DNA of 35,129 nucleotides, taken from contig JAHIKR010000064.1 of assembly GCA_018897415.1 (NCBI GenBank), positions 1-35,129 on the forward strand. Reading direction: 5' to 3'. Position 1 is the stretch's first letter; every line of letters begins with the position of its first letter. The notes under the pieces are model-generated. The model did not search any database. It saw only the letters and a program-made list of their open reading frames with translations, and had not been told where the DNA came from. The position numbers and the translations under genes were made by a program. This document shows, in pieces, positions 9,957 through 31,995 of this stretch. Source of the DNA: Pseudomonadota bacterium (GTDB lineage: Bacteria > Desulfobacterota > Desulfobacteria > Desulfobacterales > ETH-SRB1).

Positions 9957-10735
9957 TGAATATTGTTGCAATACTTCAAGCTAGGATGGGATCATCACGC
10001 CTGCCTGGGAAAGTGCTAAAGCCGATACTCGGCCGCCCAATGTTGGAACATCATATAGAGCGGATAAAACTGAGCAGTAAAATTAACCGAATAGTTGTCG
10101 CCACCAGCATTGATCCAGCGGATCAAGCAATTGTTGATCTCTGCCGGCAGATAGGAATAGAATCTTTTGAAGGTGAACTTGAAAATGTCCTAGATCGTTT
10201 TTACCAAGCAGCAAGACTATACAAATCGGATCATGTGGTTCGCTTGACCGGTGATTGTCCATTGGCTGATCCACATTTAATAGACGAATTAATTGATTTT
10301 TACTTCGTTCAGAAATGTGATTATGCCAGCAATTGTTATGAACCAACTCTGCCTGACGGGCTTGACGCCGAAGTTTTCTCCTTTGCAGTTCTGGAACAGG
10401 TATGGAAGGAAGCCGTGTTGCCATCCCATCTGGAACATGTTACCCCTTTTATTTACATGCATCCGGAAAGGTTTAAAATAAAGAGCCATAAGTATCATAC
10501 AGATTTATCACATCTCAGGTGGACGGTTGATGAATATGAGGATCTGGAATTTGTTAGGCGGATATATGAAATACTTTATCCTGTAAAACCAGATTTTTCG
10601 ATGAAAGATATTCTTCTCCTTCTTGAAAAAAATCCAGAACTTGCGGAAATCAACAGGCGTTTTAAAAGAAATGAGGGTGCGAAGAAGTCGATTGAAAAGG
10701 ATAAGCAATTTCTTGCGCAAAAGCACAGCCATTAG
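9944..10735 (+). CDS. SpsF-type cytidylyltransferase (CTP_transf_3 family; candidate CMP-nonulosonate synthetase)
   Basis: N-terminal AILQARMGSSRLPGKVLKPILGRPML, plus RLTGDCPL and a LRWTVDEYEDLEF tail. The start may be ATG 9944, 9953 or 9956, and it overlaps the AKR stop (9954-9956). Confidence 0.75.
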   Translation: MAKMMNIVAILQARMGSSRLPGKVLKPILGRPMLEHHIERIKLSSKINRIVVATSIDPADQAIVDLCRQIGIESFEGELENVLDRFYQAARLYKSDHVVRLTGDCPLADPHLIDELIDFYFVQKCDYASNCYEPTLPDGLDAEVFSFAVLEQVWKEAVLPSHLEHVTPFIYMHPERFKIKSHKYHTDLSHLRWTVDEYEDLEFVRRIYEILYPVKPDFSMKDILLLLEKNPELAEINRRFKRNEGAKKSIEKDKQFLAQKHSH

Positions 10736-13388: not shown

Positions 13389-15155
13389 ATGAATTTTAGC
13401 ACTTTTAACATGCATTTCAAAATTAACATGCGTTTCAAAAGATGGGTTAGAAAGTGGATACTCAGCGAGCATCTGTTTCGGAAGATTAGGCTTTATCGTT
13501 ACGACAAACTCCAGAAATTCTGGTTAGGCCACCCCCCGGTACCTGCACCTCCCTTCGAGACAAGCTATTTTAGAAAAGCAAATTTAGACCCACGTGTGGT
13601 TCGTCGTCTGGATGATTATCGATCCGCTGTAGTTGTAACAGGAAAAACCGAATTGCCTATTGAGAAGCGGAACGGAAAATCGTCAATTCAATTTGCAATA
13701 AGTCCGGCAAGAGATTGGGTTCCCGATAAGTTAGTTCGTTTTAAAATTGGTGGACACGAAACTCTTATTCGAGAAATACCGGTGGATCGGTGGTTCGATG
13801 TGCGCTTGGATCTTGAGGATGAAGACAAAACGTTGATTGTTGAACCAGATGCACCGGTTGAAATAACTATGCCGAGGCTCGTAAAAAATCCTATTCTGGA
13901 AAAGAATAGAAAGGAGATACGCCATATAGTCGTTTGCGTACTGGATGCATGGTCAACGGCCACTGTAAATGAAAAACATCCTATGACAGGGGAAAATAGC
14001 TTGACGCCTAATATAGATCGTTTTTTTTCGCAAGGCTTGTGTGCAAGAAAGGGTATATCAAGCGGGCAATGGACGTTGCCGGCTGTTGGTACTCTGTTCA
14101 CCGGGTTGCATGTTTCGCGTCATAAAATGACACATCCATGGCGCTGGCAGGAATTTGATCGTAATCGTCGAACATTGCCTGAATATTTTCAACATGCCGG
14201 TTATCATACCTTGTGTGGGTCCGTTGTGTCGCGGGTTACACCCGCATTTGGTCACAATCGGGGCTTTGATCGCTTCCTGTATCATTTTCCGGGATTTTCA
14301 TACCAGACTTATGATCCCGCTGTCTGGATACAGGAAATTATCGGTCATATGGAGGCACATTATGGAGATCGGACGTTCAGCTATTTCCAGTTTCCTGATA
14401 CCCATCCCTCGTGGGACATTGCCCCCGAAACGAGATATTTTCATTTATGCCGTCGTGGAAACACGTCGTCAAATCTTAAACAGTTGATGACATCAAAGGC
14501 TTCGAAAATTTTTGACATACCTAACCAAGCTCAACAATTATATTCTTTAAGACTCGCTGAGATCGACAGGATGCTTGGCTGCATTTTTGATTATGTAGAA
14601 AGAAAATTCGAAGAAGAAGCCCTTATCGTTGTGACAGCAGATCATGGTATGCGAATGCCGTATATGAGCGAAGCCCATCAAAACGATGAACCTTTCCTGA
14701 CAGATATTCGAGTTAATATCCCTCTATTCATGCGTGGTCTCGGCGTTCCCGTATGCTCTTATGACGGATTATGTCCGCCAAATCTTGATCTGCCTTTAAC
14801 TCTCTTAAATCTGGCAGGTCTAAAACCGGACTTAGATGATTTTGACGGTACAAACGTCCTGGATCGGATCAGTCTCCAAAAAGAATGTGTTATAAGTGAA
14901 TATGTTTACGCAGGAATCTACGAACTTGCAGTTAGAGGCTATGGCCACGCATTATTTTTAAAATTCGAGATCGACGACAAAGCATATAAGATTCTTTCAA
15001 GAGAACCGATATACATAGGACTATATTCGCTTAATACAGCTTCATACGGGAAAGATAACGATTTAATAAACGAAAAACCTGATGTTTTCGAAACTCTTCG
15101 CAAGGTTGCAATTGATCATATTAACAACATAGGTCTGATGGAGAATATCGGATGA
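13389..15155 (+). CDS. Alkaline-phosphatase-superfamily enzyme (phosphodiesterase/NPP- or sulfatase-like) with an N-terminal extension of about 170 aa
   Basis: Metal-site-like VCVLDAWS. The nucleophile region is QWTLPAVGTLFTG (T-x-P, not the C/S-x-P-x-R of FGly sulfatases). VVTADHGM is also present. RBS AGGAAGG. The stop overlaps the next gene's start (ATGA). Confidence 0.7.
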   Translation: MNFSTFNMHFKINMRFKRWVRKWILSEHLFRKIRLYRYDKLQKFWLGHPPVPAPPFETSYFRKANLDPRVVRRLDDYRSAVVVTGKTELPIEKRNGKSSIQFAISPARDWVPDKLVRFKIGGHETLIREIPVDRWFDVRLDLEDEDKTLIVEPDAPVEITMPRLVKNPILEKNRKEIRHIVVCVLDAWSTATVNEKHPMTGENSLTPNIDRFFSQGLCARKGISSGQWTLPAVGTLFTGLHVSRHKMTHPWRWQEFDRNRRTLPEYFQHAGYHTLCGSVVSRVTPAFGHNRGFDRFLYHFPGFSYQTYDPAVWIQEIIGHMEAHYGDRTFSYFQFPDTHPSWDIAPETRYFHLCRRGNTSSNLKQLMTSKASKIFDIPNQAQQLYSLRLAEIDRMLGCIFDYVERKFEEEALIVVTADHGMRMPYMSEAHQNDEPFLTDIRVNIPLFMRGLGVPVCSYDGLCPPNLDLPLTLLNLAGLKPDLDDFDGTNVLDRISLQKECVISEYVYAGIYELAVRGYGHALFLKFEIDDKAYKILSREPIYIGLYSLNTASYGKDNDLINEKPDVFETLRKVAIDHINNIGLMENIG

Positions 15156-15739: not shown

Positions 15740-16671
15740 AAGTCGTTATTGCTGGAGTGAGTGGTCTCCTTGGAAGTAATCTGGTCATGACCATGAGGGG
15801 CAAATTCGATACTGTCGGGACATATAATCAAAATAAAATAGGTTTTGATGGTATTTGTATGGAGAACATGGACATTACTTCGGGTGAAGAAGTTAACAGT
15901 ACTATCTTGAGCGCTATGCCAGATATTTTAATCCATTGTGCTGCTGAAACTCGAGTTGATCATTGCGAGGAGTATCCTGGAGACGCCTTCCGTGTTAATG
16001 TTGAAGGTACATCAAACTTAGCTCTTGCAAGTGCCAAGGCAGGTGCAAAAATGATTTATATTTCCACGGATTCTGTATTTGATGGTCTAAAGGGGAACTA
16101 CAGCGAAAAAGACGAGACAAATCCCGTAAATGTTTACGCTCAGACAAAACTTGAGGGAGAAAAAGCCGTAAAAAAATACTGCGATAATTATCTGATCCTC
16201 CGAACCAATATTTACGGTTGGAACGCAAGGTCAAAATCGAGTTTAGCCGAATGGGTTCTAAATCGTTTGAAAAGCGGTGATCGAAAAATTCCTGGCTTCG
16301 GGGATGTTTTTTTTTCACCCATGTTAGTTAATGATCTGGCTCATATTATTGAAAAGATGATAGGAGCTGATTTGCGGGGGCTGTTTCACGTCGGAGCAAG
16401 CGATAAGTGCAGCAAACTCGATTTTGCCAGAATGATCTGCAGGGTCTTTGATGAAAACTCAAGGCGTGTAGTCCCGAGCAATTCGGATACTATTAATTTC
16501 AGAGCTCGCCGTCCCAAAGATACTTCTCTGAATGTTACGAAGGTTACTCTCGAATTGGAAAATGCAATGCCTACTGTTGTAGAAGGATTAAGACATTTTC
16601 GAGAGCTCTTGGATAGTGGTTACGTTGATCAACTGAAGGCGATTGTGATGAATCAGGAGGTTTCATTATGA
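15736..16671 (+). CDS. RmlD-like NAD(P)-dependent sugar 4-ketoreductase (SDR)
   Basis: From the ATG at 15736 it reads MKVVIAGVSGLLGSNL. It also has YISTDSVFDG and YAQTKLEGE (YxxxK). The ORF-track start 15718 lies inside the GNAT gene. There is an ATGA overlap with the GNAT stop. Confidence 0.75.
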   Translation: MKVVIAGVSGLLGSNLVMTMRGKFDTVGTYNQNKIGFDGICMENMDITSGEEVNSTILSAMPDILIHCAAETRVDHCEEYPGDAFRVNVEGTSNLALASAKAGAKMIYISTDSVFDGLKGNYSEKDETNPVNVYAQTKLEGEKAVKKYCDNYLILRTNIYGWNARSKSSLAEWVLNRLKSGDRKIPGFGDVFFSPMLVNDLAHIIEKMIGADLRGLFHVGASDKCSKLDFARMICRVFDENSRRVVPSNSDTINFRARRPKDTSLNVTKVTLELENAMPTVVEGLRHFRELLDSGYVDQLKAIVMNQEVSL

Positions 16672-17744
16672 ATAAAATGCATATCGCCGATCGCTCAATT
16701 GGAGATGGAGAGCCCACTTATTTCATAGCAGATATTGCGGCCAATCACGATGGGAGTCTGGATAGGGCCAAAAAATTGATCTGTCTGGCAAAGGAAGCCG
16801 GGGCAGATGCAGTAAAATTTCAAAATTTCGAAGCCAGGAAAATAGTCAGCAAACAGGGATTTGAATCGCTGGGTGGTCAAGCATCTCATCAGACTAAGTG
16901 GAAGAAGTCTGTCTTCGAAGTTTATGAGGATGCTTCCATTCCCTCCTCGTGGACTGTAAAACTCTGTGAGTTTTGTAAAGATACGGGGATTCATTATTTT
17001 TCTTCTCCCTATGACTTTGAAGCTGTGGATATGTTAGAACCATTTGTGCCGGCTTATAAGATCGGTTCGGGGGACATTACTTGGCCGGAAATGCTTCGAA
17101 AGATTTCAGCTAAAGGCAAGCCGGTTCTTTTAGCTACGGGAGCTTCGGATATAAATGAAGTGCGTGACGCGGTAAATATCATAAAATGTATCAATCCAAA
17201 TTTGGTTTTGATGCAGTGTAATACAAATTATACGGGGAGCCTGGAAAACTTCAGATACATTAATTTAAATGTTCTTAAAACCTTTAAAGACAAGTTCCCA
17301 GATGTAGTATTGGGTTTATCGGATCATACCCTTGGATATGTAACAGTATTGGGGGCTGTTGCATTGGGGGGGCGGGTAATAGAAAAACATTTCACTGACG
17401 ACATGAGTCGAGAAGGACCGGACCATGTTTTTTCAATGATACCTGAGGCATGGGCAGAAATGGTGCTACGTACACGAGAACTTGAAGATGCACTCGGGGG
17501 AAAGGAAAAGCGGGTGGAAGATAATGAACAGGAAACCGTGATCCTGCAGAGACGATGTCTGCGCGCGAAACAAAATCTGAAAATTGGAACAATTCTTACC
17601 AGACACTTGATTGATGTTTTAAGACCGGCACCGAGAGATGCTATTTCCCCTTATGATGTTGATCGGATGATCGGAATGCGGTTAATGGTTGATTTGCCGG
17701 AAGGCGAATATTTTAAATGGTCATATTTAGAAACGGTAAATTAA
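16668..17744 (+). CDS. NeuB-family nonulosonic acid synthase (PseI/LegI/NeuB/SpsE type)
   Basis: YFIADIAANHDGSLDRAKKLICLAKEAGADAVKFQ, a GLSDHT motif, and a C-terminal SAF-like domain. ATGA overlap with the upstream reductase. Confidence 0.85.
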   Translation: MNKMHIADRSIGDGEPTYFIADIAANHDGSLDRAKKLICLAKEAGADAVKFQNFEARKIVSKQGFESLGGQASHQTKWKKSVFEVYEDASIPSSWTVKLCEFCKDTGIHYFSSPYDFEAVDMLEPFVPAYKIGSGDITWPEMLRKISAKGKPVLLATGASDINEVRDAVNIIKCINPNLVLMQCNTNYTGSLENFRYINLNVLKTFKDKFPDVVLGLSDHTLGYVTVLGAVALGGRVIEKHFTDDMSREGPDHVFSMIPEAWAEMVLRTRELEDALGGKEKRVEDNEQETVILQRRCLRAKQNLKIGTILTRHLIDVLRPAPRDAISPYDVDRMIGMRLMVDLPEGEYFKWSYLETVN

Positions 17745-22839: not shown

Positions 22840-24324
22840 GTGGCAACTAAAGAACAGCAGATAAAAAACAGTTTTATCTATCTATTGCCCATCATAATTA
22901 GTAATCTACTCCCTTTTATTACATTGCCGATATTTACCAGAATCCTTACCAGGGAAGATTACGGGGTTTTGGCGTTAGCTCAGGTATATGCAATTTTTGT
23001 GACCGGTTTGGCAAATTTCGGAATGACCGTGTCTTACGACCGAAACTATTTTCAATATCGAGATAATCGCGTAGAAACGGCGAAATTATTATATTCCACT
23101 CTCCTCTTTGTAATGTTGAATTTTCTTTTTCTCGCTGGTTTGACTTATTTATTCAAGGGAACTCTCTCAAAGCTCATTATAGGATCTGCTGAACATGCGA
23201 ACATTATGTTCTGGGCGTTTTGTGCACAGTTTTTCAGTAGCGTGAGCTATTACTACTTGGCTTATTTTAAAAACTCCGAATCAGCAAAAAAGTTTGTTGT
23301 TTATACAATCACAGGTAGTCTTATTGCCATTATCATTTCTCTTTATCTGGTAGTTTATCTGCGTATCGGTGTTATTGGAATTGTATATGCGCAGTTGTGC
23401 TCTGGAACCTTAGTTTTTGCTATATTAACTTATAAATTTACAAATATTTTTTCCATTACATTTAGCAAACCGATATTTGTTGAGTCGCTGAAAATAAGTT
23501 ATCCCTTAACACCCAGGATATTTTTGGGTGTTATAGGCTCACAATTTGATAAATACATGATCGGTTTGTTGGCCTCAGTCGGGGGGGTCGGAATATATAG
23601 TATTGGTCAGAAAGTAGCATATGTTACATTTAGTTATATGACGGCGTTGGAAAACGTCTATGCGCCGCAGGTATATAAAAAAATGTTTGATCTTGGGGAT
23701 AAGGGCGGTGAAGCAGTGGGACCGTACCTTACTCCGTTTTTTTATATATCAATTTTGGTTGCGCTGATGATTTCCTTATTTTCTCAAGAGGTTATTACAA
23801 TTTTGACTCCAAGCTCGTATCATGAAGCCATAGATATAGTTACAGTTTTATCTATGCTATATGGGTCGTATTTTTTCGGAAAACAGCCTCAGCTTATCTT
23901 TGCAAAGAAAACATGGATGACCTCTGCTCTTACTCTGGTAAATATTACTCTCAACATTGCGATAAATATCCCGTTCATTATAAAATGGGGAGCCATTGGC
24001 GCTGCCTGGGCTACGCTTACCGCAGGAGTGATCTCCTGTTCGATTTCCTTTGCTATTTCGCAGCACTACTACCGAATCAGGTGGGAGTATGGAAATCTGG
24101 CATACATCTTCTTGACCTTTTTTGGATTTTCAATCCTTATTATATTATTGAGGGACATGAATGCCGCATACTCGGTGCTTTTGGGTGTGAAGATAATTGC
24201 TGTTATGATTTATGTCTTGATCGGTGTAAAAATAAGAGTGATTACTATGAAAAACTGGATGCTCGTGAAGGATATGCTTTTCAACTTAAAGACACGTTCG
24301 CTATTGGGAAATTCTCAATCTTGA
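22840..24324 (+). CDS. wzx: Wzx-type oligosaccharide flippase (MOP superfamily polysaccharide biosynthesis protein)
   Basis: 494 aa with about 12-14 hydrophobic helices and a Wzx-like N-terminus (SFIYLLPIIISNLLPFITLPIFTRILTREDYG). GTG start. Confidence 0.75.
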   Translation: MATKEQQIKNSFIYLLPIIISNLLPFITLPIFTRILTREDYGVLALAQVYAIFVTGLANFGMTVSYDRNYFQYRDNRVETAKLLYSTLLFVMLNFLFLAGLTYLFKGTLSKLIIGSAEHANIMFWAFCAQFFSSVSYYYLAYFKNSESAKKFVVYTITGSLIAIIISLYLVVYLRIGVIGIVYAQLCSGTLVFAILTYKFTNIFSITFSKPIFVESLKISYPLTPRIFLGVIGSQFDKYMIGLLASVGGVGIYSIGQKVAYVTFSYMTALENVYAPQVYKKMFDLGDKGGEAVGPYLTPFFYISILVALMISLFSQEVITILTPSSYHEAIDIVTVLSMLYGSYFFGKQPQLIFAKKTWMTSALTLVNITLNIAINIPFIIKWGAIGAAWATLTAGVISCSISFAISQHYYRIRWEYGNLAYIFLTFFGFSILIILLRDMNAAYSVLLGVKIIAVMIYVLIGVKIRVITMKNWMLVKDMLFNLKTRSLLGNSQS

Positions 24325-24355
24325 GCTAATGGGATTGCTGATGAGTTCTGTTGTG
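24285..24355 (+). repeat. Direct repeat copy 1 (wzx 3' end plus the decayed start of the downstream gene)
   Basis: About 90% identical by eye to 26102-26175. The exact core cgctattgggaaattctcaatcttgag is at 24299-24325 and 26119-26145. Confidence 0.85.
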
Positions 24356-24417
24356 GAAGTAAAACGATTCTTTGAAGCCAGAATGGAGTAACATCGTAAG
24401 ACAGAAAGGGATTTATT

Positions 24418-25437
24418 GTGGATATGAATTGTAGAATATTAGCCACGTTGGGGCCGAGTTCATTGCGGCAGGATATTATCTCGCAGATTGAGAATGAATA
24501 TTTATATCTTTTTCGCATTAATCTATCACATACACCAATCGATTCATTAGCGGATATCATAAGCAAAATTCAAAGCTACACCGAAATTCCTATCTGCTTG
24601 GATTCCGAGGGAGCACAGATTCGGAATCAATCGGTGACCAATGGAAAAATATTCCTTCATAAGGATGACGCAATAAAAATCCATTTCAATGAAATTCTGG
24701 GGGATTCAAAGAATCTATCTTTTACACCTCCTAATATAGCCGAGCAGCTAACTGTGGGTGACGAGATGAGTATTGACTTCAATTCAACTCGCATCAAGAT
24801 CATTGAGAAACACATGAAATACTGTAAGGCTAAGGTAGAACATGGGGGGAAGGTTGGTAGTAACAAGGCTGCCACCCTGAACAGGGAAATTGATATGGAA
24901 GCGATTACTTCCAAAGATAAGAAGGCAATCACGATTGCGAAAGAAATGGGGATCAAATATTTTGCTTTGTCTTTTGCCGGATCAAGTGAAGACGTCAAAA
25001 CGATGCGTGAACTCGCAGGAAGAGATGCGACCATCATTTCAAAAATTGAGAGCAAGAAAGGTGTTCTTAACCTCAATGATATAATAGATGCAAGTGACGA
25101 AATTCTTATTGACCGAGGTGATTTATCCAGAGAGATTAATCTTGAGAAGATTCCATTTCTACAAAGGAGAATAATTGCAATGGCAAGATCAAAAAAAGTG
25201 CCTGTATATGTTGCCACAAATCTCCTCGAGTCAATGGTAAAAGTGCCGGAGCCCACAAGGGCGGAAATTAATGATGTGGTAAGTACATTGTTAATGGGTG
25301 CAAATGGATTGGTTCTAGCCGCTGAAACCGCCATAGGAAAATATCCTGTAAAAGCTGCAAAGATGATTAAAAAGCTCATAAGCCAAACAGAAAAGTGGAC
25401 ATCAAATACCAGTATTACAGAATTACTAGAGAGTTGA
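24418..25437 (+). CDS. Pyruvate-kinase-like enzyme lacking the C-terminal regulatory domain
   Basis: ILATLGPSS...FRINLSHT, DSEGAQIR, KIESKKG, IDRGDLSREI and PTRAEINDVVSTLLMGANGLVLAAETAIGKYPVKA match the pyruvate kinase barrel motifs. It is only 339 aa. The likely true start is the ATG at 24424 (MNCRIL). Confidence 0.75.
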   Translation: MDMNCRILATLGPSSLRQDIISQIENEYLYLFRINLSHTPIDSLADIISKIQSYTEIPICLDSEGAQIRNQSVTNGKIFLHKDDAIKIHFNEILGDSKNLSFTPPNIAEQLTVGDEMSIDFNSTRIKIIEKHMKYCKAKVEHGGKVGSNKAATLNREIDMEAITSKDKKAITIAKEMGIKYFALSFAGSSEDVKTMRELAGRDATIISKIESKKGVLNLNDIIDASDEILIDRGDLSREINLEKIPFLQRRIIAMARSKKVPVYVATNLLESMVKVPEPTRAEINDVVSTLLMGANGLVLAAETAIGKYPVKAAKMIKKLISQTEKWTSNTSITELLES

Positions 25438-25492
25438 CAAAAATAGGCAATATCAACAGTTTTTAAGAAGAACTAACTATAGGTTAATAACT

Positions 25493-26056
25493 ATGTGCCG
25501 GGTGTATAACAACGGTAATAATGTTTTTTGGATAATGGGTCCCACAGCGAGCGGTAAAACGACTTTAGCCAATATCATTCTATCAAAGTTACGGGAAAAT
25601 GATACACTGGCTATTCATTATGATGGCGATGAGGTGCGAGATTTCTTTGGTCTGAGTCTTGGCTTCGAAAAAGCGGACCGGCTGAAGGTTGTCAAGACGA
25701 TTGTTCATCTTTCAAACAAGGCCATTGATGCCGGCCTAAACGTAATTATTTCCGCTTTAACTGCTAACCAGGATGCACGGGATTATGTGATACGGAATGT
25801 GAAAAATTTAATACTTATTTATCTTGAATGTAGCATCAAAAAATGTATGCAAAGGGACACTAAGGGCCTCTACGAAAAAGCGGCAAATAAAGAAATAAAC
25901 ACCGTTATCGGTTATAATGATGAATACTTGGCGCCGGAAAATCCAGATATTATCATTAATACAGATGAGAAATCGGTTGAAAGCAGTGCTCTCGATCTTA
26001 TGGAACGACTTCGCGAGCGTGGAATTATAAAAAAACCTTTCCAGAATTTAATCTAA
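25493..26056 (+). CDS. cysC: Adenylyl-sulfate (APS) kinase family protein
   Basis: P-loop GPTASGKTT, YDGDEVR and ISALTANQDARDYV resemble the CysC motifs (GxSGSGKST, LDGDNxR, SFISP). The substrate cannot be inferred from sequence. Confidence 0.65.
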   Translation: MCRVYNNGNNVFWIMGPTASGKTTLANIILSKLRENDTLAIHYDGDEVRDFFGLSLGFEKADRLKVVKTIVHLSNKAIDAGLNVIISALTANQDARDYVIRNVKNLILIYLECSIKKCMQRDTKGLYEKAANKEINTVIGYNDEYLAPENPDIIINTDEKSVESSALDLMERLRERGIIKKPFQNLI

Positions 26057-26101
26057 ATCTTCCATTAACAACAGGCTGCTAATGAAGAACATTTTTTTAG
26101 A

Positions 26102-26175
26102 CCTAAAGATACGCTCCTCGCTATTGGGAAATTCTCAATCTTGAGTTAATGAGATCGCTGATGAGTTCTATTGTG
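26102..26175 (+). repeat. Direct repeat copy 2 (pseudo wzx 3' end plus the true start of ORF 26149)
   Basis: Reads ...LKIRSSLLGNSQS* followed by ATGAGATCGCTGATGAGTTCT. It mirrors LKTRSLLGNSQS* plus atgggattgctgatgagttct at 24285-24355. Confidence 0.85.
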
Positions 26176-28313: not shown

Positions 28314-28703
28314 ATGAAAAGAATAACTGAGATTATGCGGTCAGGAGAAAATAATGCAGTATCAAATAAGGATGCCTGTTTTAGAGAAGTCTTGGAGATA
28401 ATGGATGCCAAGCGTCTTGGTGTGGTTTGTATTGTGGATGAGGGAAAACTGATAGGAATAGTGACTGACGGAGATCTCAGACGACTCATTCTAAAAACAC
28501 AGGATACCTTGCCTGACCTTTTTATGAAGAAAGTTAACAAGATTATGACTCTAAACCCAAAAGTTATCTCATCTGAGGCAAGTCTTGAAGATTGCCTTAA
28601 TATGTTAAAAAAACACAGATTTTGGGTTATTCCGGTGGTTAATGAAGAGCAGATGCTTCTGGGAGTTGTGCATATGCAGGATCTGCTTGAAGCACTGATA
28701 TAG
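28314..28703 (+). CDS. Stand-alone CBS-pair protein corresponding to the C-terminal part of KdsD/KpsF arabinose-5-phosphate isomerase
   Basis: ITEIMRSGENNAV...LGVVCIVDEGKLIGIVTDGDLRRLIL...IMTLNPKVI...VIPVVNEEQMLLGVVHMQDLLEA matches the KdsD CBS region. There is no SIS domain, and an in-frame stop lies 2 codons upstream of the ATG. Strong RBS AGGAGG. Confidence 0.75.
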   Translation: MKRITEIMRSGENNAVSNKDACFREVLEIMDAKRLGVVCIVDEGKLIGIVTDGDLRRLILKTQDTLPDLFMKKVNKIMTLNPKVISSEASLEDCLNMLKKHRFWVIPVVNEEQMLLGVVHMQDLLEALI

Positions 28704-28712
28704 GGAGAAGAC

Positions 28713-29570
28713 ATGATAAAAGACGTCCATATTGGAAAGGAACGTGTAGAAAAAGTTGTTGTTGGAGAAAACGAGCCATTGACTCTGATTGCCGGTCCGT
28801 GTGCGATTGAATCAGAAGAACATTCGCTACGAATGGCAGAGGCTATTCAGGAAATAACCAAAAGACTCAAAATTCAATTCGTCTTCAAGTCTTGTTATGA
28901 TAAAGATTGCAGAAGTTCTATTAAAAGTTACCATGGGATTGGTGTTACCAAAGGGCTTGCGATATTGAGAAAAGTCCGTGAGACTTTCCATGTTCCGGTC
29001 ACCGCAGATGTAAGCAATGTTGCCTTGGTGAGCGAGGTGGCCGAAGTTGTTGATCTCATACAGATTCCAGCCTATCTCAGCCGTCAAACACATTTACTGG
29101 TCTCCGCCGGCGAAACCGGCCTCCCTATTCATATCAAAAAGGGACAGTTTCTAAGTCCATGGAATATGAAAAATGCGGCCATTAAGGTCGAGTCCACTGG
29201 AAATCGTAACATTATCCTGACGGATCGGGGGACATTTTTCGGATATAACATGCTTGTAACCGATATGCGTTGCTTTAGAATCATGCGAGACTCCGGTTAC
29301 CCCGTGTGTTATGATGCTACGCACAGCATTCAAATGCCTGGTAGCCTTGGAACTTCCAGTGGTGGGCAAAGAGAGTTCATTCCTGATCTTACAAGGGCTG
29401 CCATGGGAGCCGGTGCTAACGCTCTGTTCATTGAAGTGCACGACAATCCTCAAAGTGCCCTGTGCGATGCCACGACACAACTCCCTTTGAAATTTCTGGA
29501 GGCTTTGCTCATACAGGCAAAGGCAATATACGATTTGGTCCGTCAGTTTCCGGAATTAGAAATCAATTAG
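28713..29570 (+). CDS. kdsA: 3-deoxy-8-phosphooctulonate (Kdo-8-P) synthase
   Basis: LTLIAGPCAIESEEH, FKSCYDKDCRSS, IQIPAYLSRQTHLL, DATHSIQMPG. Confidence 0.9.
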   Translation: MIKDVHIGKERVEKVVVGENEPLTLIAGPCAIESEEHSLRMAEAIQEITKRLKIQFVFKSCYDKDCRSSIKSYHGIGVTKGLAILRKVRETFHVPVTADVSNVALVSEVAEVVDLIQIPAYLSRQTHLLVSAGETGLPIHIKKGQFLSPWNMKNAAIKVESTGNRNIILTDRGTFFGYNMLVTDMRCFRIMRDSGYPVCYDATHSIQMPGSLGTSSGGQREFIPDLTRAAMGAGANALFIEVHDNPQSALCDATTQLPLKFLEALLIQAKAIYDLVRQFPELEIN

Positions 29571-30600: not shown

Positions 30601-31995
30601 ATGAATATTCTTTTTGTTATCACAAATATTAATGGTACTTATAACGATGCTTATTCTTTTGGATTAGCTTCAATAGCAAGCATTACAAGAGATAAAGGGT
30701 TTAATTATGATATTAAGGTTATTAATAAAATTGAAGATTATGATGACTTATTTGATGCAGTTGAAAGGATAAAACCAAAAGTAATCGGATATTCAAGTGT
30801 ATCTTCTCAATTTATGTTTGTAAAAGATATTTCATCAAAAATAAAGGCAAGATTTCATGATAACATAATACAGGTTTGCGGTGGTATTCATCCAACAATT
30901 TATCCTGAATGTATCCTTGAAACGGAAATGATAGACGGTATTTTTATAGGTGAAGCAGAATATGCATTTTCTGATTTTTTGGATAGGGTATCAAATGGTA
31001 TACCTTACAAAGATGTAAAGAATTTTGCATATAACAATAATGGCACTTTAGTGAAAAATAGTTTGTATCCGCTAGAAACTGAATTAGAAAAGCTCCCATT
31101 TCCTGAAAGGGAAAAATATGGATATGATCGATTCGTAAAGAGAGATGGAATTGCTCATTTCTTATTTGCTAGGGGATGCCCTTACAATTGCAGTTTTTGC
31201 TGTAATCAGGCTAAAGCGCAAACTTACAATATGCGCATAAATACACCAAGATACAGATCTCCTGAAAGCTCCATTGAAGAGATTAAGCGGTTGTTAAAGA
31301 AATTCTCTTTTAGTAAAATTTTTATTTCAGATGATACATTTGGTGTAAATAAAAAATGGATGAGAGAATTTTGCAATAAATATGCTAAAGAAATAAGATT
31401 GCCTCTATGCTGTCAACTGCGTGTTAATATAGTGAACGAAGAAATAATGGAATATCTAAAACTAGCTGGATGTGTTCATGTTACCTGTGGTGTGGAATCA
31501 GGAAATACCTATATAAGAAAAGAAATAATGAAAAAAAACTATAGTGAAAAACAGATTGTCAACGCATATTCTTTATTTAAAAAATATGGAATGACATCAA
31601 ATGTCACAAATATTATAGGAGTTCCACAAGATACTGTTGATACTATTTGGGACACCATCAAATTAAATAGAAAAATTAATCCTACAAGTAGTGGAGTAAA
31701 CATCTTTTATCCGTATCGTGGAACAGAGCTTGGAAATTATTGTTTTAAAAAAGGCTTGATCGATGAAGATATATTTAATAAATTTAGTACAGAACGCAGA
31801 GAGTCTTGTTTGAATTTTCCTGCTGAATTTAAGAAAAAACTTGTCTATTTCCATAGAAATTGGCAATTGCTTGTATATAAACACAGACCATTAAAATTTT
31901 TATATTACTCTTTACTAAAATACATGCCAACACCTTTATTGAATACTCTTAGATTTATAAAAAGAAGGCTCTATATGGTGTTTCCAGGGTGGTGA
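30601..31995 (+). CDS. B12-binding-domain radical SAM enzyme (class B-like), 464-aa form
   Basis: RGCPYNCSFC cluster and an N-terminal cobalamin-binding-like region (KVIGYSSVSSQF...IQVCGGIHPT). The gene is markedly AT-rich. Confidence 0.8.
   Translation: MNILFVITNINGTYNDAYSFGLASIASITRDKGFNYDIKVINKIEDYDDLFDAVERIKPKVIGYSSVSSQFMFVKDISSKIKARFHDNIIQVCGGIHPTIYPECILETEMIDGIFIGEAEYAFSDFLDRVSNGIPYKDVKNFAYNNNGTLVKNSLYPLETELEKLPFPEREKYGYDRFVKRDGIAHFLFARGCPYNCSFCCNQAKAQTYNMRINTPRYRSPESSIEEIKRLLKKFSFSKIFISDDTFGVNKKWMREFCNKYAKEIRLPLCCQLRVNIVNEEIMEYLKLAGCVHVTCGVESGNTYIRKEIMKKNYSEKQIVNAYSLFKKYGMTSNVTNIIGVPQDTVDTIWDTIKLNRKINPTSSGVNIFYPYRGTELGNYCFKKGLIDEDIFNKFSTERRESCLNFPAEFKKKLVYFHRNWQLLVYKHRPLKFLYYSLLKYMPTPLLNTLRFIKRRLYMVFPGW

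Follow-up and report, generated by a model that had tools for sequence, protein, structure and literature searches.

The 35,129-nucleotide stretch of DNA analyzed here (the window, ~35 kb) carries a Kdo/nonulosonic-acid (NulO) glycan locus in which a pyruvate kinase (PK)-like gene (24418–25437, forward strand) and an APS-kinase homologue (25493–26056, forward strand) form a 1.8-kb cassette between 58-nt direct repeats. The left repeat copy (24298–24355) spans the stop codon of the Wzx gene (24322–24324), and the right copy (26118–26175, 93% identical) spans the ATG at 26149 that starts the gene of a 624-aa protein (c144). Both copies, to which no strand applies, were delimited by repeat search and three-way alignment with the empty site of a related locus, L091. 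The inserted segment (24356–26117, forward strand) comprises the two genes and a degenerate duplicate of the 3' end of Wzx, and is absent from L091, where Wzx ends at 9984 and the homologue of the 624-aa protein (93% identical) starts at 10001 with nothing between. L091 shares the genes PFTS–Wzx–c144–CBS–KdsA–KdsB with the window and has a NeuB gene upstream. Apart from the inserted cassette, the Kdo/NulO locus is complete, and the cassette was probably acquired horizontally. Its GC content (38–40%, against 27–48% across the locus) gave no distinctive composition profile, and a promoter and terminator scan around it returned nothing above shuffled background.

The window also encodes two PEP-consuming synthases, NeuB (16668–17744) and KdsA (28713–29570), both identified by Pfam and NCBIfam and both named in the initial annotation, which had in addition seen neither an ATP sulfurylase nor a sulfotransferase here. 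Scans of window open reading frames (ORFs) ≥100 aa with Pfam, NCBIfam, and custom HMMs agreed, detecting no ATP sulfurylase, CysD/N, or sulfotransferase. No window ORF matched the Pfam sulfotransferase models PF00685 and PF13469, which match many related loci, or HMMs trained on four groups of sulfotransferases from related loci, and CysQ was not found in the 35-kb window. The 624-aa protein and the PFTS-motif protein were considered as cassette-dependent partners and rejected, since both are present in the empty-site locus L091. Neither the 660-aa nor the 624-aa protein had a PDB sequence match at E-values up to 10, and when the 624-, 660-, 640-, and 588-aa proteins were compared iteratively with the related loci retrieved, relatives emerged for the 624-aa and 588-aa proteins only.

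The two cassette proteins

The initial annotation had described a truncated PK beside an APS-kinase homologue at 24418–26056, and this observation was confirmed by Pfam and NCBIfam profiles and AlphaFold2 models: the comparison of profiles and structures it had proposed recovered a PK fold of A and B domains and an APS-kinase fold. The PK-like ORF starts at a GTG and encodes 339 aa; an alternative ATG at 24424 gives 337 aa, the usual length in the family. PF00224 matched residues 5–313 with 217 bits (profile positions 4–327 of 328), and Pfam found no PK_C match, the C-terminal regulatory domain. NCBIfam pyruvate-kinase models stayed below cut-off and aligned over only the first ~340 of ~476 positions (e.g. 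TIGR01064, 258.6 against a cut-off of 306.4, model positions 3–341 of 476). The predicted structure (pLDDT 90.1) superimposed on solved PKs with query-normalized TM scores of 0.82–0.89 over ~340 columns, which take in the TIM barrel (A domain) and the cap (B domain) but no other domain. The motifs previously listed for this protein (KIESKKG, DRGDL, PTRAE, and AAETAIGKYP) were all found. Its catalytic residues R33, N35, S37, D62, R69, K150, K209, E211, D235, and T267 are conserved and correspond to R32, N34, S36, D66, R73, K156, K220, E222, D246, and T278 of PykF. The protein is predicted from these residues to keep the full PEP/Mg/K/nucleotide site, with the allosteric C domain lost.

Identity to ~337-aa relatives was 55–96%, and 55–68% to most of the family members listed; the identical protein turned up only on a 2.7-kb Logan contig. 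Seven changes near the active site relative to PykF are invariant in this family (K68E, E71Q, A243D, G248S, V249R, Q279N, and S312A), and the family-specific invariant residues (E64, Q67, D232, S237, R238, N268, and A301) all occur in the window protein. The family thus shares with canonical PKs (PykF, PKM) the A and B domains and the catalytic Arg/Asn/Ser/Asp/Lys/Glu/Asp/Thr set, but differs from them in the missing C-terminal allosteric/tetramerization domain, in the seven invariant substitutions, and in a genomic context of glycan sulfation rather than glycolysis.

The adjacent 187-aa protein matched PF01583 (APS_kinase) with 112 bits and fell just under the equivalog cut-off of TIGR00455 (130.7 against 138.7). 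The P-loop (GPTASGKTT) and the DGDxxR motif (YDGDEVRD) reported earlier are both present. Its model (pLDDT 90.1) had APS kinases as all 50 of its top 50 PDB fold matches, the best being the Archaeoglobus fulgidus enzyme 7yq1 (TM 0.85/0.93, rmsd 1.6 Å). The protein belongs to a PK-linked subtype, being 50–60% identical to kinases beside PK-like genes compared with 27–28% to kinases in modules resembling that for O-methyl phosphoramidate (MeOPN). Where canonical kinases have "FISP", it has "SALTA", and at least 90% of the subtype keeps the ALTA; in the KENIRR helix, Val takes the place of Asn. In canonical enzymes, both positions are part of the lining of the APS site.

Genomic neighborhoods of the PK-like family

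The PK-like protein belongs to a large, unnamed, tightly conserved family present in at least 554 GTDB species. Neighborhoods were counted over 82 non-redundant loci, with representative neighbor genes checked against Pfam. The PK-like domain was fused N-terminally to PUA_2 plus ATP-sulfurylase (Sat) in 33/82 loci, an APS kinase was its immediate neighbor in 40/82, and a sulfotransferase lay at most two genes away in 27/82. At least one gene of sulfate activation or sulfate transfer was present in 70 of the 82 loci; the remaining 12 had no sulfur gene nearby, about half of them flanked on one or both sides by <2 kb of sequence. Among 109 close neighbors of stand-alone members, Sulfotransfer_1/3, Sulfatase, and TauE were recurrent, and the recurrent neighbor clusters c36, c54, c74, and c66 had no Pfam match. 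The pairing with APS kinase recurs in dozens of unrelated genomes and is therefore more than chance.

The fused Sat domains keep the HRxH and GRDH motifs, with HTRNVAHRxHE and GRDHTG in place of the consensus QTRNPxHRxH and GRDHAG, and the Sat part of one fusion (L041) passed its NCBIfam cut-offs (407 against 387; 333 against 323). Split PK and Sat gene pairs also occur (L050, L056). Stand-alone and fused PK-like domains have the invariant catalytic and family-specific residues in common. In the tree they fall into a single clade, which a long branch separates from PykF and within which stand-alone forms arose in at least two places; the window protein groups inside the stand-alone clade. Judged by its sequence and by the PK-linked kinase beside it, it is a member of the PK-like family tied to sulfate activation as defined here.

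In several genomes, the window's kinase subtype lies among sulfur genes. In Ensifer sp. MJa1 (JAKUMO010000002.1), a kinase of this subtype, 51–55% identical to that of the window (about 513,652–514,230), lies directly downstream of a PK–PUA–Sat fusion (about 511,424–513,628) and is followed by a transporter. Desulfomarina profundi (AP024086.1; PK-like gene at about 1,465,273–1,466,295) carries a sulfotransferase–PK–APSK trio with the same subtype, which also occurs, in sulfotransferase–PK–APSK or APSK–PK–x–sulfotransferase order, in Ca. Magnetomoraceae and a JGI contig. Acidobacteria have PK-like genes that adjoin sulfotransferase genes, and neither a kinase nor Sat is adjacent there. Across the ~100 loci searched, the sulfurylase was of the uncoupled Sat type only, and the GTPase-coupled CysD/CysN was not found.

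These neighborhoods bear on a PEP-related role for the PK-like protein, one of three roles raised by the initial annotation. In a housekeeping form of this role, the enzyme would keep PEP or pyruvate in balance for the locus, whether for NeuB, for KdsA, or for a step that depends on pyruvate, and its neighbor, the kinase, would have no part in it. The two PEP-consuming synthases of the window fit such a housekeeping function, as do HpcH/HpaI pyruvate aldolases in two related loci. Yet PK uses PEP and does not make it, and across phyla the distribution of the family follows that of Sat, CysC, and sulfotransferases and shows no such link with NeuB or KdsA. Since L091 keeps the window's KdsA, KdsB, and c144 genes and carries a NeuB gene but lacks the cassette, a PEP-supply role is not supported, and we regard the housekeeping reading as very improbable.

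Putative PAPS supply for glycan sulfation

We consider it probable (roughly 60%) that the cassette supplies PAPS for sulfating the nonulosonic-acid/Kdo glycan of this locus. Among the roles proposed earlier, PAPS formation is the one favored, because of the Sat fusions, the adjoining sulfotransferases, and the Ensifer locus with its PK–Sat fusion and window-type kinase. The 187-aa kinase would phosphorylate the 3'-OH of APS with ATP to yield PAPS and ADP, and the PK-like enzyme would convert this ADP and PEP to ATP, so that the net reaction would be APS + PEP to PAPS + pyruvate. Removal of ADP would free the kinase from a dead-end E-ADP-APS complex. An ATP sulfurylase from another part of the genome would furnish the APS; many relatives have this enzyme fused to the PK-like domain. 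The kinase is thus a putative APS kinase, ADP and PEP are the probable substrates of its partner, and the glycan is a candidate sulfated glycan. An in vitro precedent exists: PAPS synthesis needed ATP regeneration by PK and PEP because APS kinase forms the dead-end E-ADP-APS complex (PMC9885120). Such cascades likewise combine sulfurylase, APS kinase, and PK/PEP, with ADP removal relieving the complex, but they are engineered and use commercial PK (PMC9885120), whereas the module proposed here would be a natural one.

Several observations speak against PAPS supply. No ATP sulfurylase, sulfotransferase, or CysQ gene lies within the 35-kb window, and 12/82 related loci lack a nearby sulfur gene. 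The kinase scores just below the APS-kinase equivalog cut-off, and its FISP-to-ALTA and Asn-to-Val changes fall at positions of the canonical APS site. Given that cells possess a housekeeping PK anyway and keep ATP/ADP high, it is not evident why they should require an enzyme devoted to ATP regeneration. The seven family-invariant substitutions could reflect a different nucleotide substrate or coupling mode.

An alternative is a sulfate-related module in which the PK-like enzyme would be no plain ADP-to-ATP recycler. It would instead couple PEP energy to sulfate activation, as an analogue of the CysN GTPase, or phosphorylate a pathway nucleotide, e.g. a PAP-derived species for donor salvage. 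Consistent with this, the fusion partner is Sat itself and not APS kinase, CysDN is never found with the family, E64, Q67, D232, S237-R238, N268, and A301 adjoin the Mg/K and PEP ligands, and the Acidobacteria genes stand beside sulfotransferases with neither kinase nor Sat adjoining. Against it, all canonical PK catalytic residues are retained, which fits the canonical reaction, and we know of no PK that phosphorylates a nucleoside monophosphate or sulfate. We consider a non-recycling enzyme unlikely.

The best candidate partner of the cassette is probably a 588-aa protein of alkaline-phosphatase/sulfatase fold (13389–15155, forward strand; PF00884, 66 bits). As the initial annotation had read it, Thr stands at the nucleophile position, where sulfatases have the formylglycine Cys/Ser ("QWTLPAV" aligned to the sulfatase "SGPSR"). 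No hydrophobic N-terminal segment was evident, and the protein appears from its sequence to be cytoplasmic. Relatives lie beside or near PK–APSK pairs in L008, L011, L086, and L090 (the last a weak Pfam hit), and the 10 kb that precede the empty-site locus L091 showed none. Others lie near MeOPN-type kinases (L094, L096, L098), which counts against PAPS supply. Because the family accompanies 3'-kinases of both kinds, the glycan may carry a phospho-type substituent.

Such a substituent would be expected if the kinase, like Cj1415 of Campylobacter jejuni, 3'-phosphorylated a non-APS donor resembling CDP-amidate and the 588-aa protein transferred the phospho-type group to the glycan. Cj1415–Cj1418 make CDP-phosphoramidate 3'-phosphate (PMC11800397), a pathway precedent for this reading. 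Cj1415, the cytidine diphosphoramidate 3'-kinase of MeOPN synthesis, is likewise homologous to CysC; its gene belongs to a capsule locus, and it yields a 3'-phosphorylated nucleotide donor. The window's "SALT" loop is nearer the "CS(A/I/V)LS" of kinases in MeOPN-like modules than "FISP", and the relatives of the 588-aa protein in L094, L096, and L098 point the same way. However, Cj1415 works with Cj1416, Cj1417, and Cj1418, and the window has no counterpart to any of the three: the glutamine kinase (PPDK_N/PEP-utilizers), the Peptidase_C26 amidase, and the PF01467 cytidylyltransferase are absent from window ORFs ≥100 aa. In L087 and L088, glutamine kinase, cytidylyltransferase, and Peptidase_C26 domains form a separate module, and L087 holds both kinase types as separate modules. 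The kinase is of a different subfamily, given its 27–28% identity to MeOPN-context kinases against 50–60% to PK-linked ones, and in Ensifer its subtype partners a PK–Sat fusion. A Cj1415-type role is consequently improbable in our judgment; of the phospho-substituent pathway suggested earlier, the Thr of the 588-aa protein was confirmed.

Known systems and wider meaning

Dedicated PAPS synthesis within glycoconjugate-modification loci is known from rhizobial NodP/NodQ with the NodH sulfotransferase, in which the NodPQ sulfurylase is the GTPase-coupled CysD/CysN. As there, locus-specific sulfate-activation genes would give PAPS for a surface or secreted glycoconjugate, with a homologous APS-kinase step. 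In contrast to NodPQ, the PK-like loci have a sulfurylase, if any, of the Sat type, and they add a PK-like protein or domain. Of this set, the window holds just two genes, those of the PK-like protein and the kinase. Bifunctional PAPS synthases that join Sat and CysC (2gks of Aquifex, PAPSS of fungi and animals) also fuse or link successive activities around a Sat of PUA_2 plus ATP-sulfurylase, but their fusion partner is the APS kinase, whereas here it is an N-terminal PK barrel and the kinase is usually a separate adjoining gene.

In a bolder reading, which we hold to be distinctly doubtful, sulfate activation would have a new energy-coupling part in the PK-like protein, which would join Sat and CysC in a PAPS synthase driven by PEP and serve Sat-type sulfurylases as the CysN GTPase serves CysD. 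Under this reading, the 588-aa cytoplasmic Thr-type protein would represent a new enzyme class that uses sulfuryl or phosphoramidyl donors activated by 3'-phosphonucleotides or clears their by-products.

A full-text literature search found no description of PK-like proteins or PK–Sat fusions in sulfation, and no earlier description of the pairing with sulfate activation was found in the literature searched. A role in PAPS supply would give a function to thousands of genes now labeled merely "pyruvate kinase" and would make the family a source of natural parts for PAPS regeneration, and the cultured hosts Desulfomarina profundi and Ensifer sp. MJa1 are available for direct tests. Sulfate activation is thermodynamically uphill, and the known solutions are pyrophosphate removal, the pull of APS kinase, and the CysN GTPase. 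A PK-like paralogue widespread across phyla together with Sat, CysC, and sulfotransferases points to a further solution, PEP-driven PAPS production for glycan sulfation, and flags many bacterial surface-glycan loci, including those for nonulosonic acids and Kdo, as probably sulfated.

A truncated pyruvate-kinase barrel and its family

The ORF at 24418–25437 (forward strand) encodes a 339-aa protein from a GTG start; an alternative ATG at 24424 yields 337 aa, the usual length among its relatives. Profile and structure comparisons confirmed the initial annotation of a truncated pyruvate kinase (PK): the PF00224 barrel was the sole Pfam match (residues 5–313, 217 bits), NCBIfam PK models aligned over the first ~340 of ~476 positions with scores below cut-off, and PKs in the PDB (470–590 residues) were alignable only to about residue 333–340. 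An AlphaFold2 model (pLDDT 90.1), for which 29 family members were used, superposed on solved PKs with TM-scores of 0.82–0.89 (query-normalised) and ~0.6 (target-normalised). The match comprises the A barrel and the B cap and lacks the C domain.

The best 120 database relatives (319–371 aa, PF00224 only, 55–96% identity) are called 'pyruvate kinase' if named at all. Searching GTDB species representatives with two family-specific peptides recovered at least 554 relatives, whose hosts include Pseudomonadota, Desulfobacterota, Planctomycetota, Omnitrophota, Chloroflexota, Acidobacteriota, Actinomycetota, Verrucomicrobiota, Nitrospinaceae, and Calditrichaceae. The protein is thus a member of a large, conserved family without a name. 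Compared with E. coli PykF (sequence matched to its database record), R32, N34, S36, D66, R73, K156, K220, E222, D246, and T278, which we take to be catalytic or metal-binding, are all invariant in the family, as are seven nearby substitutions (K68E, E71Q, A243D, G248S, V249R, Q279N, and S312A). In a neighbour-joining tree the family formed a single clade, with a long branch separating PykF. Stand-alone forms arose in at least two separate places in this tree, so fusion or fission occurred more than once.

Genomic company of the PK-like family

We surveyed 80 GTDB loci plus loci from an exact protein look-up, called ORFs, and reduced the set to 82 non-redundant loci, labelling the ORFs with locus-derived HMMs and checking representatives against Pfam. 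Among these loci, picked by similarity to the PK-like protein of the window and annotated by simple ORF calling, the PK-like domain was fused with PUA_2 and ATP-sulfurylase domains in 33 of 82, an APS kinase lay immediately beside the PK-like gene in 40, and a Pfam-verified sulfotransferase family, detected with HMMs derived from the surveyed loci themselves, occurred within two genes of it in 27. At least one of these features was present in 70/82 loci; of the other 12, about six have flanking sequence shorter than 2 kb on one or both sides. Of the three roles initially proposed, PAPS formation for glycan sulfation is the best supported. The PK-like part forms the N-terminal third of the fusions (670–810 aa), the rest being PUA_2 and an uncoupled-type ATP sulfurylase (Sat) that retains the HRxH and GRDH motifs and, in one fusion (locus L041), exceeds the NCBIfam sulfate adenylyltransferase cut-offs. 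Two loci (L050 and L056) carry PK-like and Sat together as separate genes, and the GTPase-coupled CysD/CysN type was absent from every surveyed locus. TauE permeases recur near stand-alone PK-like members, many of whose hosts are sulfate reducers.

Other neighbours recur as well. In several phyla, the gene immediately after PK-Sat(-APSK) encodes a membrane protein of the Na_H_Exchanger family (L101:10663–11883, L056, L044, L055, L075, and others), possibly the sulfate importer of that module. A 640–740-aa family without a Pfam match, a candidate PAPS-using enzyme, is found beside PK-Sat/APSK (L046:12163–14379, where it carries an APS-kinase domain fused at its N-terminus, L041:7962–10004, and L063:12693–14840) and is absent from the window. 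Four loci (L012, L022, L027, and L034) hold stand-alone PK-like genes with no kinase, Sat or sulfotransferase nearby; with their heparinase II/III-like, UDP-glucose dehydrogenase, carbamoyltransferase, and SxtJ-like genes, they look like glycosaminoglycan-type polymer loci.

The adjacent kinase and the glycan locus

The neighbouring ORF (25493–26056, forward strand, 187 aa) matches PF01583 APS_kinase with 112 bits. Its P-loop (GPTASGKTT) and DGDEVR motif, with Archaeoglobus fulgidus APS kinase as top match by sequence and by fold, corroborate the initial CysC-like call, and its score of 130.7 is slightly under the NCBIfam equivalog cut-off (138.7). Kinases beside stand-alone PK-like genes constitute a subtype of their own (GPTSSGKTT, DGDEVRDFF, RLRVV, SALTA), set apart by a drop in bit score from 157 to 110 past roughly the first 110 clusters. 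Canonical CysC (verified E. coli sequence) has FISP in place of SALTA and also an Asn in KENIRR, differences that leave room for a non-APS substrate such as that of Cj1415, the CysC homologue of the Campylobacter jejuni O-methyl phosphoramidate (MeOPN) pathway (summarised in PMC11800397). Three comparisons argue for APS instead, and the Cj1415-like role is therefore not supported. In Ensifer sp. MJa1, a kinase 51–55% identical to that of the window (depending on the alignment) and bearing every subtype motif comes directly after a PK-PUA-Sat fusion and before a transporter. The window subtype also occurs in sulfotransferase-PK-APSK or APSK-PK-x-sulfotransferase order in D. profundi, within a two-NeuB nonulosonic-acid locus, in Ca. 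Magnetomoraceae, and in a JGI contig. Finally, loci L087 and L088 carry a complete MeOPN-like module (CTP_transf_like + PPDK_N + PEP-utilizers fusion, 172-aa kinase, Peptidase_C26) and, a few genes away, a distinct pair of PK-like and window-type kinase genes; identity to the window kinase is 60% for the PK-linked kinase of that locus and 28% for the MeOPN-context one. The fusion there (947 aa; L087:1339–6330, L088:950–5917), Cj1416-like plus Cj1418-like, neighbours a Cj1415-like kinase, Peptidase_C26, and a Sulfotransfer_1-family gene, which hints that a sulfotransferase-fold enzyme may act as phosphoramidate transferase.

The remainder of the window is, from its gene content, a surface-glycan locus: PglF-like and PseB-like dehydratases, a class-III aminotransferase, an aldo/keto reductase, two CMP-sugar synthetases, two B12-radical-SAM enzymes, GNAT, an RmlD-like reductase, NeuB, glycosyltransferases, an Asn-synthase-like protein, a PFTS-motif protein, Wzx, a TIGR04326-like 624-aa protein, a CBS protein, KdsA, and KdsB. 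As initially noted, ATP sulfurylase and sulfotransferase are missing: no ORF of ≥100 aa matched these, CysD/N or a MeOPN-pathway partner. A housekeeping Sat or CysDN encoded outside the window could supply the APS.

A 58-nt direct repeat (copies 93% identical) flanks the pair at 24298–24355, covering the Wzx stop codon, and at 26118–26175, covering the start of the 624-aa gene. In the metagenome scaffold L091, Wzx is followed directly by a homologue of the 624-aa protein (93% identical) and CBS-KdsA-KdsB-GT2-GT4, with no PK or kinase; in a three-way alignment its junction (L091:9900–10080) is colinear first with the left repeat copy, then with the right. The pair is therefore a cassette that was inserted recently, with duplication of the junction; the base composition of the cassette is not distinctive. 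Since L091 retains the NulO/Kdo backbone genes, the cassette is dispensable for that backbone, and since PK consumes PEP, the initially suggested supply of PEP to NeuB and KdsA is ruled out. The 624-aa and PFTS proteins, both present in L091, are excluded as cassette-specific transferases. A second gene-content difference is a B12-binding radical-SAM gene between KdsB and GT2 (30601–31995), replaced by a 66-aa ORF at L091:14168–14368. The 129-aa CBS protein (28314–28703) consists of a CBS pair only and most closely resembles the C-terminal part of KpsF/KdsD arabinose-5-phosphate isomerases; the 290-nt spacer upstream holds no SIS domain. The same stand-alone gene precedes KdsA-KdsB in L091 and L092, which marks it as conserved rather than a fresh pseudogene.

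The cassette-bearing locus most syntenic to the window, L086 (PK-like proteins 67% identical), shares the Asn-synthase-like protein (18900) and a 588-aa sulfatase-fold protein (13389–15155, forward strand); neither gene appeared in the 10 kb preceding the L091 empty site. Three genes downstream of its PK-APSK pair, L086 carries an Inositol_P-family gene (13581–14351); this family includes the PAP phosphatase CysQ, and the product could equally be a sugar-phosphate phosphatase. The 13389 protein has the metal-ligand motifs LDAW and DHG and no evident hydrophobic N-terminal segment, and appears cytoplasmic. The Thr reported at its nucleophile position was borne out: that of 'WTLP' occupies the place of the formylglycine Cys/Ser of sulfatases, without the Arg of CxPxR. 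Relatives adjoin PK-APSK in L008 and L011 and lie close by in L086; a weak Sulfatase match sits directly upstream of the PK-like gene in L090. Only eight relatives turned up in a reciprocal metagenome scan, and three of these lie near MeOPN-type kinases (L094, where the kinase has an additional segment fused at its N-terminus, L096, which also has an 803-aa PEP-utilizer-type protein alongside, and L098). The family thus tracks 3'-kinases of both kinds; we speculate that it comprises transferases using 3'-phosphonucleotide donors or phosphatases clearing the PAP/pCp by-product.

A proposed PAPS supply module

We consider the pair probably PAPS-related. In the simplest mechanism fitting intact PK chemistry, the APS kinase would form PAPS and ADP, the PK-like enzyme would use PEP to convert ADP to ATP, and the regenerated ATP would feed both Sat and the kinase; the recycling step is inferred. 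PK/PEP regeneration was likewise needed in vitro for PAPS synthesis by human PAPSS1, because APS kinase gets stuck as a dead-end E-ADP-APS complex (PMC9885120). That the allosteric C domain has been lost would be in keeping with an enzyme that is unregulated and dedicated to this pathway. The invariant substitutions surrounding the K+/Mg2+/PEP site, the choice of Sat and not the kinase as fusion partner, and the exclusive association with uncoupled Sat would also be compatible with closer energy coupling or another nucleotide as substrate, and ADP recycling as the specific role of the PK-like protein is tentative, at slightly less than even odds. For the combined reading, PAPS supply with ADP-to-ATP recycling by the PK-like enzyme, we estimate a probability of about 0.6. 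We found no description of a PK-like component of PAPS supply in the literature. Like NodPQ, the pair would constitute a PAPS supply module dedicated to its locus, distinguished by its PK-like component.
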